Source: an uncultured Gammaproteobacteria bacterium
Lineage (GTDB): Bacteria > Pseudomonadota > Gammaproteobacteria > GCF-002020875
DNA length: 64,000 nt
Reading direction: 5' to 3'
NCBI GenBank assembly: GCA_963981015.1
Contig: CAXCCG010000001.1
Location: forward strand, 12,560-76,559
The position numbers and the translations under genes are program-made. This document shows positions 6,119-18,390 of this stretch, piece by piece (the stretch's first letter is position 1; each line of letters opens with the position of its first letter). The notes under the pieces are model-generated. The model was not told the DNA's origin, ran no database searches, and saw only the letters and a program-made list of their open reading frames with translations.

Positions 6119-6912
6119 AAATGACTCCTTTCCATCAATCCTGCACCTACCAAAGCCTCATACGTCTCTCGCACATCGTGCACACGTACAACATCAGCAC
6201 CTCGTTCCACAGCAACCACTGCAGCCCCGACACTCCCCATCAAGCGCTCCTCAACGGGTCGCCCTCCCAGCAAAGTACCTATCATCGATTTCCTGGATAT
6301 CCCAACCAGAAGAGGTACTTCTGCTATTTTAAAACGGGCCAGACCTCGCAATAGTTGCATATTATGATCCAGTGTTTTGCCAAACCCGAAACCTGGATCA
6401 ATCCAGATTTTTGAGCGGTCGATGCCCGCATGTTCACTCACCTCAATACGTGCTGACAAAAAGCCCAGCACATCCTCAACCACATCTTGATAATCGGGTT
6501 GCTGTTGCATTGTTCTTGGCTCACCCTGCATATGCATCAAACTGACTGTTGCCCCCGTATCAGCAGCCGCTTGTAACGCCCCGGCCCCTTGAAGGGCACA
6601 GACATCATTAATAAGATCTGCCCCTGCTGCAACCGCTGCACGCATTATATCCGCTTTGCTGGTATCGACTGAAAGTTGAACATCACTCTCTTGACGAATC
6701 GCTTCAATAACTGGAATAACACGCTGCAGCTCCTGGTCCAGCGAAACTGCAGATGCACCCGGACGAGTCGACTCCCCTCCGACATCAATAATGGCTGCCC
6801 CATCCCTGACCATTTTTAATGCTTGAGTACGCGCACTCTCCAGCGCAATAAAAGCCCCCCCATCGGAAAAAGAGTCCGGGGTTACATTGAGTATCCCCAT
6901 AATTCGGGACAC
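6115..6912 (-). CDS. folP: dihydropteroate synthase
   Basis: MGILNVTPDSFSDGG pterin-binding motif; 4-nt overlap with glmM, conserved ftsH-folP-glmM order. Confidence 0.93.
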   Translation of the reverse strand: MSRIMGILNVTPDSFSDGGAFIALESARTQALKMVRDGAAIIDVGGESTRPGASAVSLDQELQRVIPVIEAIRQESDVQLSVDTSKADIMRAAVAAGADLINDVCALQGAGALQAAADTGATVSLMHMQGEPRTMQQQPDYQDVVEDVLGFLSARIEVSEHAGIDRSKIWIDPGFGFGKTLDHNMQLLRGLARFKIAEVPLLVGISRKSMIGTLLGGRPVEERLMGSVGAAVVAVERGADVVRVHDVRETYEALVGAGLMERSHF

Positions 6913-6939
6913 ATTCAGTACCAGAATACTGCTACTGAA

Positions 6940-8865
6940 TCAGTGCTGATTGGCCGGATCACCCACAGGATCTTCTGAATCGGCTTCATCACTCTCTGAA
7001 GCAACGATGAACTCAACCCCATCATCATCTTCGTCATCATCAGACTCACTCCAATCTTCTGGCGGACGCGGTGTACGCCCCTCCATAATATCCTTGATTT
7101 GAGTACCATCAATCGTTTCAAATTTGATTAATGCCTCTGCCATCAGATCCAGTATGGTTCGATTCTCTTTCAGAATGGACTCTGCACGCTCATAGTTCTG
7201 ATCGATCACAGCACGAATCTCCTCATCAATCAGATGTGATGTTTCGTCCGACACCTCTTTATGTTTGGTTACAGAACGCCCCAGAAAGACCTCTCCCTCC
7301 TCCTCTGCATAGGAGAGTGGCCCCAATTTTTCTGACAGCCCCCATTTGGTCACCATATTACGGGCTATTTCTGTAGCACGCTCAATGTCGTTAGAGGCAC
7401 CTGTTGTCACCGCATCTGCACCAAACACCAACTCTTCTGCAATACGTCCACCAAACAGACTGGATATTTGACTCTCCAGACGTTTTTTACTATGGCTATA
7501 GCGATCTTCTTCCGGAAGGAACATGGTGACGCCGAGAGCACGCCCTCGAGGAATAATGGTCACCTTATAAACCGGATCATGCTCAGGAACTGACAATCCA
7601 ACAATCGCATGACCTGCCTCATGGAAGGCTGTCAGCGACTTCTCCTCATCACTCATCACCATTGAACGGCGTTCCGCACCCATCATAATCTTGTCCTTGG
7701 CCTTCTCAAACTCAGACATATTGACCAGACGTTTGCCGGCTTTGGCAGCAAACAGGGCCGCCTCATTCACCAGGTTGGCGAGATCGGCACCAGAGAAGCC
7801 CGGAGTTCCCCGCGCCAGCAGTTTGGGCTTGACGTTCTTGGCGACCGGAACCTTATTCATATGCACTTTAAGGATATGCTCACGTCCGCGCACATCGGGT
7901 AGTGGCACCACCACCTGACGGTCAAAACGGCCAGGGCGTAGCAGTGCAGGGTCCAATACGTCTGGACGGTTGGTTGCTGCAATCACAATCACGCCATCAT
8001 TGGCCTCAAAGCCATCCATCTCTACCAGTAGCTGATTCAGTGTCTGCTCACGCTCATCGTGTCCTCCACCAAGCCCGGCACCACGATGGCGCCCCACCGC
8101 GTCGATCTCATCAATAAAGATGATACAAGGCGCACTTTTCTTGGCCTGCTCAAACATGTCACGTACACGCGAGGCACCGACACCGACAAACATCTCAACA
8201 AAATCAGAGCCAGAGATAGTAAAAAAAGGCACCTTGGCTTCACCGGCAATCGCCTTCGCCAGCAGTGTCTTACCGGTGCCTGGAGAACCTGTCAGCAATA
8301 CACCACGAGGAATTTTTCCACCCAGCTTCTGAAATTTTCCAGGATCTTGCAAAAAATCAACCAGTTCAGAGACCTCCTCTTTCGCCTCCTCAACTCCAGC
8401 CACATCCGCAAAGGTGACTTGCACTTGATCTTCATTCAAGAGACGTGCCTTGCTCTTACCGAAAGACATCGGCCCCCCTTTACCACCAACTCCACCTTGC
8501 ATCTGGCGCATAAAGAAGACCCACACCGCAATCAGCAGCAGCATAGGGAACCAGGAGATGAAAATCTGCATCAACATCCCCTGCTGCTCAGGGGGCTGTG
8601 CATCGATTGACACCCCATTTTCGATCAGATCACCGATCAGCCCACGATCACCCGGATCATAGGTGGTGAATTGCTCTCCTGTAGCGCTGACCCCACGAAC
8701 CACTCGCCCCTCAATCTCCACTCGATTCACACGACCTTGACGAACATCCGAGATAAATTGCGAGTAGTCGACACCTTTCTGGCTGCTGTTGCGGGGACCA
8801 AAACTATTAAAAACAGACATGAGCACAGTTGCAATAACGGCCCACAAGAGGATATTTTTCATCAT
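6940..8865 (-). CDS. ftsH: ATP-dependent zinc metalloprotease FtsH
   Basis: 641 aa; AAA+ Walker [12 protein letters not shown], a second region of homology, the HEAGHA zinc motif and an acidic C-terminal tail. Confidence 0.97.
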
Positions 8866-15915: not shown

Positions 15916-16311
15916 TTACAGGAGAGAACCAACAAACGCCTCTACCACTTTCGCAGTTTGGATTGATTTTATCGCTCTATTCTCGGTTACCGCATCTCTT
16001 GGAGCAAGATCATTCATCGGGTAACGTGCAAGCTGATTCTGTTCTGCCAACATCAAAAGATCGTCCTGTGAGGGCAGATCCGCAATCGAAATCCCCGCCT
16101 CTTCAATCTGTCTCGCCAAAATTACAAGCTGATGAGTGTATTCAAATTTGGCTCCTGCAAAAATCAGAATACCTTTCAGGTTTTTCTCTGCAGATTGTTG
16201 TGCCGCATAGGCCGCCCACTCATAGCGCCCTGCACGCATAGAGTCCTTTGCCTGCTGCAGGTCCTGCTCTGCCTGACGAAGCCACAAAAGATGATCACTC
16301 ACTGTATTCAC
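15916..16311 (-). CDS. HEPN domain protein (HEPN/MNT toxin-antitoxin module)
   Basis: 131 aa; AAQQSAEKNLKGILIFAGAKFEYTHQLVIL matches the conserved helix of COG2250-type HEPN proteins. It overlaps the upstream MNT gene by 17 nt. Confidence 0.75.
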   Translation of the reverse strand: MNTVSDHLLWLRQAEQDLQQAKDSMRAGRYEWAAYAAQQSAEKNLKGILIFAGAKFEYTHQLVILARQIEEAGISIADLPSQDDLLMLAEQNQLARYPMNDLAPRDAVTENRAIKSIQTAKVVEAFVGSLL

Positions 16312-16645
16312 AGATCACCTCCTTCTCCTGATCCACATTCTTCCAGAAGAGTGAGTGCTCTCGCTTCTGCTGAAGAGCCTCTGGAGTAGTCACCACCGTA
16401 TCTCCCGGAAGTTGTGCTGCACAGGAACGGGCTGCATCTTCATGATCTGTCACAATTAACACATCAACATCAGACAATGAAGAGAAGCTCCCCGTTGCAT
16501 AAGAGCCAAACAGATAGATCTTGGAGTTTGTGCCCTGCAACAGCGGCGAACAGACGAGTTTAATTCTCTGAATCTCAGACTGCTTTCTTTTATCCCGACT
16601 TGCCCGAATAGCGAAGTGCATCACCAGAGTATACTTTTTTTTCAC
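16295..16645 (-). CDS. minimal nucleotidyltransferase (MNT) partner of HEPN
   Basis: 116 aa; LFGSYATGSFSSLSDVDVLIV is the GS-x9-13-DxD nucleotidyltransferase motif. Confidence 0.8.
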   Translation of the reverse strand: MKKKYTLVMHFAIRASRDKRKQSEIQRIKLVCSPLLQGTNSKIYLFGSYATGSFSSLSDVDVLIVTDHEDAARSCAAQLPGDTVVTTPEALQQKREHSLFWKNVDQEKEVICEYSE

Positions 16646-16652
16646 CCACTAT

Positions 16653-17675
16653 TCAGCTCTTACGACAGACATCCAGTGCCTGCAATAGTGCCGGAAAACT
16701 GATTCTCTCCTGTTCCAGCCTCAGATTGGTTGCGTGGCTGTGGTTGAGCAGCTGCTGATAGAGCCGCTGTTCCTCCTCATTGAGATACCTCAACATACGT
16801 TGGGTAGGGTGCTGCTCACGGCCCCAGAACTGGCGATGCAGCAGCAGTATCTGACGATCCATCAGCATCGATCGGGCCTGTGGAAGGTAGTGTCGAATCT
16901 GGTCCAGCATGGCAAAACCATGGGTATCGATGTCTCCCCAGTAGTAAATTTCTGATGCTTTCAGCCATAGCACCTGTTGCAGCGGTTGCAGTCCATAACC
17001 CAGACCGAAGATCACCAAACTCTTTGAATATTCAGGAAAGACCAATCCGTTAATCTCATTTTCTGTAATAAAGACTGTTTCAACACCAAGATCGAGTACT
17101 GCAAACTCTTCAACCGAAAGAGTCAGATCAGAAAGACCGGAGAGCCGGAGTGCTGGATCAAGAATACGAAAGCGGATCAGCAGAGGCTTACTACGCAATC
17201 CATAGCGTGACTCAAACCCCTTGATACCGGTGTATTCACTATTGATTGCTGTTGCTGGAAGAGTCTGGTCGAGCAGCTCCGTCAGAACCTTGCGATGCTG
17301 TTCAATAAATTTGGTATCGATCTGAGCAAGATCAATTTGACGCAGGTAGATTCCCGCTTGCGGGTGGCTAAGAAACCACTCGATAACGGTGATAATGCTC
17401 TCCCACTGTTGATGATGCAGAAGGATTTTGTGGGGATAGCGAATGACCCAGTCACGCAGTTGCGGAAAGTGCTCCAGCAGACGGGAGGCATCGTACTGAA
17501 AACGCTCAGCCTCGCCAAGCTTGCCAATCATGCGCAACAGCGCCTCTTCACTCTCGAAACAGATGCTCTGCGGAATCCTATTTTCACCAATCTGCCGATG
17601 CTGGACTGTTTTCCACTGAATAGAGCATTCTCTCCTTTTCTCCATCTTCTGCAGCTGCTGAATCCAGCTACGCAC
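16653..17675 (-). CDS. jetD: Wadjet/Mks JetD (MksG) toprim-domain nuclease subunit (DUF2220-like); N-terminus uncertain
   Basis: 340 aa from a GTG start. Toprim catalytic glutamate FITENE and metal site YYWGDIDTHGFAML resemble Topo VI-A/JetD. The reading frame stays open a further 74 codons upstream (to 17897) but has no start codon there. Confidence 0.75.
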   Translation of the reverse strand: MRSWIQQLQKMEKRRECSIQWKTVQHRQIGENRIPQSICFESEEALLRMIGKLGEAERFQYDASRLLEHFPQLRDWVIRYPHKILLHHQQWESIITVIEWFLSHPQAGIYLRQIDLAQIDTKFIEQHRKVLTELLDQTLPATAINSEYTGIKGFESRYGLRSKPLLIRFRILDPALRLSGLSDLTLSVEEFAVLDLGVETVFITENEINGLVFPEYSKSLVIFGLGYGLQPLQQVLWLKASEIYYWGDIDTHGFAMLDQIRHYLPQARSMLMDRQILLLHRQFWGREQHPTQRMLRYLNEEEQRLYQQLLNHSHATNLRLEQERISFPALLQALDVCRKS

Positions 17676-17836
17676 CTCATCAAATGACTCCCCTAATGCA
17701 TGACTATTGGGCCCCTTCAGGCGCAGACACCAGGGGAATAGCGATTCATTACCATCAACCTGTGCAGCAAGAAAGAGTCCTTGTTGCCACCGTTTCAGCA
17801 GAATCTTGCGGATCTCATCCGGGGTAGTCCATGGGG

Positions 17837-18376
17837 TTACAGCAGCGATTGTTGCGGCTCCATATCGATGATGCGATGACGTGTCTCCTGCTCTCCGTCA
17901 ATTACCGGAAACAGAGAACGGTAGTAGACATTCCAGATCACATCCGGTGTACGGATCTTGGCACGTTTAGGGTTGAGTTTGACCACCTCACCATAAATCA
18001 GCGTACCATCACGGCCACGAAACCCTACCGGGTCGCCAACAGACAGTGAGTTTCGATCCAGCACCCCTGTAGTGGTGGGTGCCACTTCAGTGACCACCTG
18101 CTCCAGGTTGAGCATATAGATTGGAAGATTCCAGCGTTTCCCACTCTCCAGTTCGGTGGCCAGCACATGGGTACGTTTAACCACCGTGATGGTGACATCG
18201 ACCATACAGTTTTTGTCTGGATCAAAAAAACTGGTGACCATTCCCGGACGCAGCTGGTTGCGAACCCGCAGAATGGTTTGCGGGTCATCGAGCAGGTGAT
18301 CAATCAGTATGCGCAGGCGAAACAGGTCAAAGGGGGAGGCATCCTGTATCGCCTCATTCAATAAATTGTAGTCCAT
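17837..18376 (-). CDS. hypothetical protein between jetC and jetD (possible novel accessory subunit or frameshifted JetD N-terminal region)
   Basis: 179 aa ORF with no recognisable motif. It starts 15 nt downstream of the jetC stop, and its stop overlaps the upstream-open jetD frame in a different frame. Confidence 0.45.
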   Translation of the reverse strand: MDYNLLNEAIQDASPFDLFRLRILIDHLLDDPQTILRVRNQLRPGMVTSFFDPDKNCMVDVTITVVKRTHVLATELESGKRWNLPIYMLNLEQVVTEVAPTTTGVLDRNSLSVGDPVGFRGRDGTLIYGEVVKLNPKRAKIRTPDVIWNVYYRSLFPVIDGEQETRHRIIDMEPQQSLL

Positions 18377-18390
18377 AATATTTCTCTTTG

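Follow-up and report, generated by a model that had tools for sequence, protein, structure and literature searches.

Where does translation of a nuclease gene begin when its reading frame offers no canonical start codon, and what is the gene that separates it from the rest of its operon? Both questions are raised by a type I Wadjet operon in the DNA of an uncultured Gammaproteobacteria bacterium, within the stretch of 64,000 nucleotides analysed here (the window). The operon is a known Wadjet system with a new arrangement, combining a conserved extra gene with a JetD that has no regular start.

The Wadjet operon and its additional gene

The gene order is jetA-jetB-jetC-ORF179-jetD, all on the minus strand. 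JetA, JetB, JetC and JetD are full length, stand in canonical order and match the PADLOC type I models strongly:

22654..24096, minus strand: jetA (kleisin, DUF3375), 480 aa; Pfam DUF3375 E 1.9e-159, PADLOC JetA1 E 1e-219, 728 bits
21783..22403, minus strand: jetB (DUF4194/MksE-like, KITE), 206 aa; Pfam DUF4194 E 6.7e-43, PADLOC JetB1 289 bits
18391..21783, minus strand: jetC (SMC-like ATPase), 1130 aa; PADLOC JetC1 PDLC00512 1577 bits over 6-1121/1123
17837..18376, minus strand: ORF179, 179 aa, ATG to TAA; extra gene of an uncharacterised family
16653..17849, minus strand: jetD, toprim nuclease, 398 codons if read from ATC; DUF3322 and JetD_C, bounds identical in the NCBI annotation

The length and GTG start of jetB follow the gene call on identical public contigs (L001/L002), and its stop codon is overlapped by the jetC ATG (TGATG). 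JetC matches AAA_29 and SbcC_Walker_B of Pfam, with the Walker A and Walker B regions present. Restriction of circular plasmids by loop extrusion and JetD cleavage is a trait of type I Wadjet, to which the window operon is assigned by its genes.

A first-pass annotation, made from the DNA letters alone, had pointed to a 179-aa ORF without recognisable motif between jetC and jetD. The ORF lies exactly there, and searches against Pfam, PADLOC and NCBIfam gave no match. ORF179 belongs to an uncharacterised family of proteins of about 175 aa, comprising 1314 clusters. Homology search retrieved 45 clusters (E 1e-114 to 3e-30, coverage 90-100%) with 18 invariant columns, and proteins of Sedimenticola, Thiodiazotropha, Chromatiaceae, Legionellales and others are 41-52% identical to ORF179 over the full length. 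Stand-alone members have the same length and architecture as ORF179 but do not adjoin jet genes; some longer ones carry an additional C-terminal SEC-C zinc motif. Jet genes were found within 6 kb in none of 80 species-level loci of ORF179 relatives, and clustering of the neighbours of 45 stand-alone loci revealed no conserved partner gene, the neighbours varying between toxin-antitoxin genes, resolvases and PRiA4_ORF3. A metagenome scan with the Wadjet-embedded subgroup yielded only two distant loci.

The predicted fold of ORF179 consists of three N-terminal helices and two small Tudor/KOW/SH3-like beta-barrels. In the sequence profile search against the PDB the only match was the KOW domain of uL24 (E 0.17), and in PHROGs the second barrel weakly matched phrog_2251, a family of unknown function. 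DUF7205 was matched neither by ORF179 nor by P0020, P0038 or P0041 at E up to 10, with faint precomputed hits in some relatives. Fold searches returned generic Tudor/KOW/SH3 barrels and domain-level matches to giant-virus 'SprT-like' proteins at a TM of about 0.3; these matches lend no support to assigning it a function.

Within Wadjet operons, the members following jetC form a sub-clade of 72-100% identity, and a 59% relative also follows jetC on a short low-coverage contig. All six diverged lineages in which both flanks are visible have the gene between jetC and jetD, and the sub-clade is under purifying selection (dN/dS 0.11-0.23 at dS around 1). In relatives, jetC overlaps the start of ORF179 by 23 nt. 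The corresponding gene of L098, ORF175, ends four codons earlier. In L007 (ORF181, 72% identical) the inserted gene is followed, after 13 nt, by the normal ATG of jetD. Outside the clade, the nearest Wadjet (L103/104) lacks the insertion; its jetC and jetD overlap by the canonical 4 nt, and jetD starts normally. These two states indicate the order of events: the ancestor of a small gammaproteobacterial clade would have captured a stand-alone ORF179 gene between jetC and jetD, and one branch of this clade, including the window, would later have lost the short spacer together with the JetD ATG. The possibility raised earlier, that the ORF is simply an inserted gene, agrees with the occurrence of the family mainly outside Wadjet; yet inside the clade ORF179 is conserved and selected.

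ORF179 could be a true fifth Wadjet component, namely an accessory subunit or regulator of JetD or JetABC, with the overlaps enforcing co-translation and stoichiometry. We consider this possible but doubtful. Its retention in six diverged lineages under the selection described speaks in favour, as does the tight packing, with jetC reaching over its start and JetD over its end; subunits of complexes are over-represented among overlapping gene pairs (PMC10666635), and the predicted fold would be typical of small nucleic-acid- or protein-binding modules. However, the family is overwhelmingly stand-alone and its surroundings are variable, the nearest Wadjet outside the clade lacks such a gene, JetD homologues number more than 6000, and published Wadjet systems operate with four subunits (PMC10586767). 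Retention could also reflect a cis-requirement, the JetD start lying inside ORF179, combined with an independent function of ORF179. More specifically, ORF179 might be a 'JetE'-like adaptor or regulator built on its tandem Tudor-like barrels, with JetD synthesis under its translational control via an ATC start or +1 recoding (see below), which appears rather unlikely. If it were so, JetD would be made only in small, ORF179-coupled amounts, providing a safety throttle on an effector that threatens the cell's own DNA. Descriptions of Wadjet count four subunits. A fifth gene conserved between those for the motor and the nuclease would point to an unrecognised regulator or adaptor, and through it the function of a family of more than 1000 uncharacterised clusters would become accessible for the first time.

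JetD is complete but lacks a canonical start codon

The following elements of the jetD region are referred to below:

17898..17900, minus strand: first in-frame stop (TGA) upstream in the JetD frame
17858..17862, minus strand: SD-like TGGAG, 8 nt upstream of the ATC; anti-SD duplex energy -5.6 kcal/mol
17847..17849, minus strand: in-frame ATC, proposed JetD initiation codon; same position in 5/5 startless lineages
17837..17839, minus strand: ORF179 stop codon
17815..17832, minus strand: out-of-frame mini-ORF ATG GAC TAC CCC GGA TGA; ATG in 5/5 startless lineages
17829..17831, minus strand: Trp codon of the JetD N-terminal WTTP motif; Trp in 116/116 full-length close homologues
17673..17675, minus strand: GTG, the gene callers' start for a 340-aa JetD, not the real start; the 54 codons upstream are selected
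16653..16655, minus strand: JetD stop TGA

The ORF lister gives JetD a length of 340 aa, with a GTG start at 17675-17673 and a TGA stop at 16655-16653. As the first-pass annotation had also observed, the frame continues open upstream of this GTG for 74 codons, to the TGA at 17900-17898, and overlaps the ORF179 stop (17839-17837) in a different frame. This extension contains no ATG, GTG or TTG; the chance of finding 74 sense codons without a canonical start is P ~0.024. Read from 17837, the JetD frame covers DUF3322 completely (1-190/190), JetD_C over 1-176/179 and the PADLOC JetD1 model PDLC00530 over 4-385/391. The first quarter of DUF3322 would be missing from a 340-aa product. The proposed comparison with the length of homologues points the same way, as among the 120 best-scoring clusters just 4 fall below 380 aa, three of them from the same startless clade. 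In the NCBI annotation of an identical MAG contig (L003), jetD extends over 6528-7724, codes for 398 aa and starts at the ATC.

It had been suggested that ORF179 and JetD are two parts of a single JetD (DUF3322 plus DUF2220) split by a frameshift. This was rejected, because a single frame holds the whole of JetD, to which ORF179 bears no similarity. The window is identical over 12,540 bp to three independent assemblies (ENA ERZ27237609, JGI 3300025488 and NCBI GCA_018702875.1) and four further diverged lineages show the same feature, which rules out the suspected sequencing or assembly error. There is no indel at 17840-17900; the anomaly is the missing canonical start beside the ORF179 stop.

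The canonical JetD start is absent in five diverged lineages (the window, L004/5, L014-16, L098 and L101). Pairwise dS between them is 0.65-1.6 for the bulk of JetD; for L098 against L101, ORF179 gives a value of about 0.36. In the 54 codons from the conserved Trp to the GTG, dN/dS is 0.10-0.22, similar to the rest of JetD (0.12-0.19), and all indels within this stretch are multiples of three. Constraint of this kind on the upstream codons excludes both a pseudogene, as had been considered earlier, and a 340-aa product from the GTG. Judged by these alignments, JetD must be a complete, selected and translated gene. Standard gene callers truncate it to 340 aa, and catalogues will therefore score such operons as having a defective JetD.

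Proposed translation of JetD from an ATC codon

Of the three explanations first offered, a non-canonical start or reinitiation is the best supported. Our preferred reading, for which we see a little better than an even chance, is that JetD is translated by initiation at an ATC codon, coupled to the translation of ORF179. Ribosomes would initiate at the near-cognate ATC at 17849-17847, which falls among the final codons of ORF179 and has an SD-like G-rich tract ahead of it, and those ending ORF179 at its stop codon, 10 nt downstream of the ATC, would probably help to load it by termination-reinitiation coupling. Near-cognate starts reach roughly 0.1-3% of the efficiency of ATG in E. coli (10.1101/063800), so a low amount of JetD is to be expected. 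JetD would thus probably be translated weakly from this rare codon inside the end of ORF179, giving little nuclease at a level tied to the translation of ORF179.

The choice of the ATC is inferred from the comparison of the lineages. All five have it unchanged, six codons ahead of the conserved Trp. The JetD frame of L004 has a TGA 11 codons before the Trp, which confines the JetD start to the stretch between the two, and the ATC is the only near-cognate start left there. The Trp is found within the first 25 residues in all 116 full-length close JetD homologues, most commonly in the motifs WTTP and WSTP. A start at the ATC retains this motif, and its distance of six residues to the Trp is the second-commonest spacing among these homologues. 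The SD-like pairing before the ATC amounts to -5.6 kcal/mol in the window and -3.7 to -8.4 in the other lineages, which is similar to the values for the canonical ATG of the relative L007 (-5.8) and for jetA (-6.0 kcal/mol). Counts of internal promoters or terminators between ORF179 and jetD were no higher than in shuffled sequence.

The SD-like tract doubles as ORF179 coding sequence (D-M-G/E) and the ATC overlaps the ORF179 codons for (Q/K)-S, so that the conservation of the ATC may partly reflect ORF179 coding. L098, the sole lineage with an earlier stop of this gene, diverged too recently to separate the two constraints. Overlapping gene pairs show translational coupling, with overlaps of -1 to -8 nt coupling best (PMC10666635); the overlap of ORF179 and jetD, at 13 nt, is longer. 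An invariant A at a third codon position, which creates an out-of-frame ATG, is not accounted for by ATC initiation.

This ATG (17832-17830) overlaps the JetD Trp codon, and a +1 shift from its mini-ORF enters the JetD frame. Ribosomes might start here, perhaps by reinitiation 4 nt after the ORF179 stop, read three to four codons and slip at a CCC next to the TGA, or one codon before it, in a programmed or tolerated +1 frameshift. We give this only a minor chance. All five startless lineages have the ATG, and its A is invariant while the first position of the same JetD codon varies (CCA/GCA/ACA). In L004, L098 and L101 the mini-ORF terminates with CCC_TGA, a classical +1 shifty stop (PMC3082878), from which the shift lands exactly in the JetD frame with Pro encoded in both frames, and the efficiency of CCC_UGA, generally up to 2%, is comparable to that of near-cognate initiation. 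However, the shift site varies, with CCC GGA TGA in the window and AGC GGA TGA, without any slippery codon, in L014. No SD-like sequence precedes the ATG (+0.7 to +0.9 kcal/mol) and a stimulatory SD before the shift site is absent. Junction RNA showed no conserved covarying structure, RNAalifold being uninformative (0 compensatory pairs, positive covariation term), and an Rfam search of the junction gave no match. Every substitution that falls between the ATG and the shift site is non-synonymous when read from the ATG, but in the JetD frame most are synonymous or conservative; the three codons following the Trp carry five substitutions, three of them synonymous for JetD and none for the ATG frame, a weak statistic based on few codons (P ~0.1). 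Finally, the product, M-D-Y-P-D-E-I-R..., would lack the Trp that is universal among the homologues.

It is very improbable that the deletion of the start codon inactivated JetD and that the gene is decaying, with a truncated 340-aa GTG product or nothing being made. The canonical start is indeed absent and gene callers give products of 340 or 344 aa, but five lineages whose synonymous divergence is saturated have kept the full ORF, with in-frame indels only and with selection across the 54 codons that would be untranslated, and the short form would have an incomplete DUF3322; loss is effectively refuted. Least credible is an ORF179-JetD fusion protein made by -1 frameshifting towards the end of ORF179. 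Upstream of the Trp the JetD frame does stay open, for 22 codons in the window and 52 in L014, and L004 has a CAAAAAT run. However, the lineages share no conserved slippery heptamer, an A-run is missing from the window, a stop closes the JetD frame of L004 11 codons ahead of the Trp, and ORF175 of L098 terminates four codons earlier.

Relation to known systems

The operon shares the JetA-D set and its canonical order with the type I Wadjet anti-plasmid SMC system JetABCD (also MksBEFG or EptABCD), whose published representatives function with four subunits (PMC10586767). In type I Wadjet jetD directly follows jetC, whereas in the window and five related lineages an ORF of the 179-aa type intervenes, and the jetD of the window has no ATG, GTG or TTG. 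This jetD offers a clear example from nature of an essential defence effector that has persisted through long evolution without a canonical start codon.

With the CCC_UGA '+1 shifty stop', known from phage tail genes and antizyme and incidentally from pheL, three lineages share the arrangement ATG-N6-CCC_TGA. In contrast to such recoding, the window and L014 have the motif displaced or lack it, searches revealed no stimulatory element, and the substitution pattern upstream of the motif favours the JetD frame.

ATC initiation has its parallel in genes whose near-cognate start serves to throttle or regulate expression, such as infC and pcnB of E. coli. Shared features are an in-frame AUH codon with an upstream SD-like sequence as the only plausible start, its preservation across diverged relatives and the low amount of product to be expected (10.1101/063800). 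The ATC in frame and the SD-like sequence at 5-10 nt are present in 5/5 lineages, both confounded by ORF179 coding. However, infC and pcnB use AUU, while for JetD an AUC is proposed. Unlike theirs, it sits inside the upstream gene and has no known link to IF3 autoregulation; owing to this position its use may require translational coupling. Should either the ATC start or the +1 shift be confirmed, JetD would join a very short list of conserved non-canonical bacterial starts, which would suggest that the dosage of the Wadjet nuclease is tuned at the level of translation.

Operon layout and the JetD reading frame

The type I Wadjet operon of the window carries an extra gene for 179 amino acids (ORF179) between jetC and jetD. 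All features that the first-pass annotation had described for this ORF and the JetD frame were found where it had placed them.

Features of the operon (window positions)
26897-24105, minus strand: SNF2-type helicase gene
24096-22654, minus strand: jetA
22403-21783, minus strand: jetB
21783-18391, minus strand: jetC
18376-17837, minus strand: ORF179, 179 aa
3' end at 16653, minus strand: JetD reading frame

For JetD, the toprim nuclease of this anti-plasmid system, the ORF lister sets the start at a GTG (17675), resulting in 340 aa. Upstream of this GTG the frame continues without a stop as far as a TGA (17900-17898), and the 74 codons in between indeed contain no ATG, GTG or TTG. Translated from 17837, the frame yields 394 aa and matches Pfam DUF3322 (1-190/190), JetD_C (1-176/179) and the PADLOC JetD1 model PDLC00530 (4-385/391); full-length relatives in the homologue search have about 395-405 aa. 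The N-terminus (...T-P-W-T-T-P-D-E-I-R-K-I-L-L-K-R-W...) starts directly past the ORF179 stop codon. Since the full profile matches lie in one frame and ORF179 resembles none of the JetD domains, JetD is complete, and the proposed split of DUF3322 and DUF2220 by a frameshift is refuted. The sole anomaly of the gene is the absent start codon. Among the 120 best-scoring homologue clusters, all 116 full-length ones carry a Trp among their first 25 residues, most commonly in the motifs WTTP (36 clusters) and WSTP (22 clusters).

A sequencing error is dismissed by three independent assemblies (ENA, JGI and the NCBI MAG GCA_018702875.1, labelled 'Gammaproteobacteria bacterium'), which equal the window exactly across 12,540 bp. 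The layout and the absent canonical JetD start recur in four more lineages among related public loci (L004/L005, L014-L016, L098 and L101), with 70-82% identity to the window for the ORF179 homologues and 66-71% for JetD. Nei-Gojobori analysis of four startless lineages (window, L004, L014 and L098; the L101 contig has only part of jetD) gave dN/dS values of 0.10-0.22 for the 54-codon stretch between the conserved Trp and the GTG and 0.12-0.19 for the remainder of JetD, at a dS of 0.7-2.7 over the 54 codons, where synonymous sites are near saturation. Within this stretch, the startless lineages differ in length by multiples of three only. Judged by this purifying pattern and these length differences, the 54 codons are translated, which rejects both decay to a pseudogene and a recent frameshift. 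A 340-aa JetD from the GTG is ruled out by the dN/dS of the upstream codons. By these comparisons, the operon is a conserved five-gene variant of type I Wadjet with a nuclease gene that lacks a canonical start codon and whose translation most likely begins from an ATC within the extra gene.

Initiation of JetD

Junction sequences of the startless lineages
window: A ATC GCT GCT GTA ACC CCA TGG ACT ACC CCG
L004: A ATC GCT GCT GTA GCC GCA TGG AGT ACC CCT
L098: A ATC GCT GCT GTA GCC ACA TGG AGC ACC CCT
L101: A ATC TCT GCT GTA GCC ACA TGG AGC ACC CCT
L014: A ATC ACT GCT CTG ACC CCA TGG ACT ACA GCG

The in-frame ATC six codons ahead of the Trp is invariant in all five startless lineages. Any JetD start in L004 is confined by an in-frame TGA 11 codons ahead of the Trp to the short stretch after this stop, where ATC is the sole near-cognate start codon. 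Upstream of the ATC lies a G-rich SD-like tract with anti-SD duplex energies of -3.7 to -8.4 kcal/mol, compared to -5.8 for the normal ATG of L007 and -6.0 for jetA. The resulting six residues ahead of the Trp are the second-commonest spacing in the JetD family, and the NCBI annotation of an identical contig starts JetD (398 aa) from this ATC. Together with the conserved 54-codon N-terminus, these features favour the non-canonical start among the earlier proposals, and we lean towards initiation of JetD at the ATC embedded in ORF179.

Alternatively, JetD could be made from an ATG overlapping the Trp codon (xxA TGG), which is out of frame and likewise invariant in 5/5 startless lineages. It opens a mini-ORF of 4-5 codons (window: ATG GAC TAC CCC GGA TGA; ending in ...CCC TGA in L004, L098 and L101 and in ...AGC GGA TGA in L014), from which a +1 slip would lead into the JetD frame. 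Ribosomes are known to slip at CCC_UGA, a classical shifty stop, with an efficiency generally up to 2% (PMC3082878). However, the window and L014 do not share this motif, the stretch ahead of the ATG shows no SD-like pairing (+0.7 to +0.9 kcal/mol), and a search of the junction revealed neither a stimulatory RNA structure nor an Rfam element. Five substitutions in the three codons past the Trp are synonymous (3) or conservative (2) in the JetD frame and all non-synonymous in the ATG frame, and a protein made by the shift would be without the Trp that is invariant in the family. For these reasons the ATC start is favoured and the shift appears unlikely, whereas the invariant A that creates the out-of-frame ATG is left unexplained by the ATC start.

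As the ATC precedes the ORF179 stop by 10 nt (13-nt gene overlap), ribosomes finishing ORF179 probably contribute to the JetD start by termination-reinitiation. Such coupling is known for overlapping gene pairs and is most effective where the genes overlap by -1 to -8 nt (PMC10666635). Near-cognate AUC, AUU, AUA and CUG starts in E. coli reach about 0.1-3% of AUG (10.1101/063800); with weak near-cognate starts and an inefficient shift, low JetD output is predicted by either route. The startless operon bears on Wadjet regulation and on annotation practice. The L098 homologue of ORF179 begins with GTG and ends four codons early at a premature TAA (CTA TAA TCG CTG CTG TAG; L098:1376-1391), which shares one base with the putative JetD ATC (TAATC) and resembles a classical -1 stop/start overlap.

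The ORF179 family

A word-index search found 45 homologue clusters of ORF179 and a profile search 1314 at E up to 1e-3 (163 at E up to 1e-30), almost all of 165-200 aa. ORF179 itself passes none of the Pfam, PADLOC or NCBIfam models; the second of its two predicted barrels bears a weak resemblance to phrog_2251 and uL24 KOW. Relatives of up to 52% identity, from Sedimenticola, Thiodiazotropha, Chromatiaceae, Legionellales and others, have no jet genes within 6 kb in 80 species-level genome loci, in line with the inserted gene considered earlier. Their neighbours vary (PRiA4_ORF3 at 5 loci, PIN/AbrB toxin-antitoxin pairs, resolvases). The location after jetC is limited to a sub-clade of at least 59% identity, with dN/dS of 0.11-0.23 (dS about 1) where both flanks are visible. 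A family that stands alone elsewhere and is selected after jetC in one sub-clade identifies ORF179, at the sequence level, as a functional protein captured once by this Wadjet lineage. ORF179 possibly retains a function of its own, or is possibly kept in part since the JetD start now sits inside it. That it became a Wadjet accessory factor is less likely than not. Published Wadjet systems need just four subunits (PMC10586767).

The PRiA4_ORF3-domain gene, the only recurrent neighbour seen, in several unrelated genomes, lies directly upstream on the same strand (L011-L013:4203-5615 and five genome loci, e.g. L043). Longer members of 231-271 aa (remote relatives P0170, P0171, P0176, P0199, P0241 and P0296) carry a C-terminal SEC-C metal-binding (zinc) motif, and in L017 a separate SEC-C/DUF1186 gene adjoins the family gene. 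In L102 (286-918; coverage only 1.5x, unreliable), a 59% identical homologue follows a JetC C-terminus (79% identical); the next 99 nt code for a short unrelated ORF (MIKLEDLKK...) and not a JetD N-terminus.

Flanking genes

The 930-aa SNF2/Helicase_C protein (24105-26897, minus strand) has the same orientation as jetA and stops 8 nt before that gene begins, an order also present in public contigs identical to the window, and may be co-transcribed with the operon. It is similar to DpdE/ZorD/BrxH-type defence helicases (PADLOC, E down to 6e-68), with a weak SWIM zinc-finger match. Beginning 8 nt past the jetD stop, nucleotidyltransferase (NTP_transf_2/MntA-like; 16295-16645) and HEPN (15916-16311) genes, both on the minus strand, form a type VII toxin-antitoxin-like module, which is also found downstream of jetD in L004/L005 and is followed by carA-carB-greA. 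In the window, jetC ends 14 nt short of ORF179 (gap 18377-18390), whereas in L004 (5001-5023), L007 and L014 it extends about 23 nt into the homologue; thus the JetC C-terminal tail differs among lineages. L105 (1-2620; a short contig of low coverage) could be a different JetD-containing arrangement: an SNF2-type helicase C-terminus, a 357-aa protein bearing a CxxxCxxC (radical-SAM-like) motif and a 402-aa JetD homologue (58% identical, normal start), whose start the gene of the 357-aa protein overlaps by 8 nt, with no jetC ahead.

Comparison with other Wadjet operons

In L007-L009, the extra gene (ORF181, 72% identical; JetD 56%) is followed by a 13-nt spacer, in which an SD-like sequence lies, and by a normal ATG (M-S-E-W-S-N-P); the startless lineages lack this spacer. 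This distribution, taken with the nearest Wadjet outside the clade, shows that the gene was inserted between jetC and jetD first, and that spacer and JetD ATG were lost later in one branch, a loss that the ATC either compensated or made possible. In that nearest Wadjet (L103/L104; JetD 58% identical), jetC and jetD show the canonical 4-nt overlap with no extra gene between them, whereas the type I operon of the window adds a fifth gene at this position.
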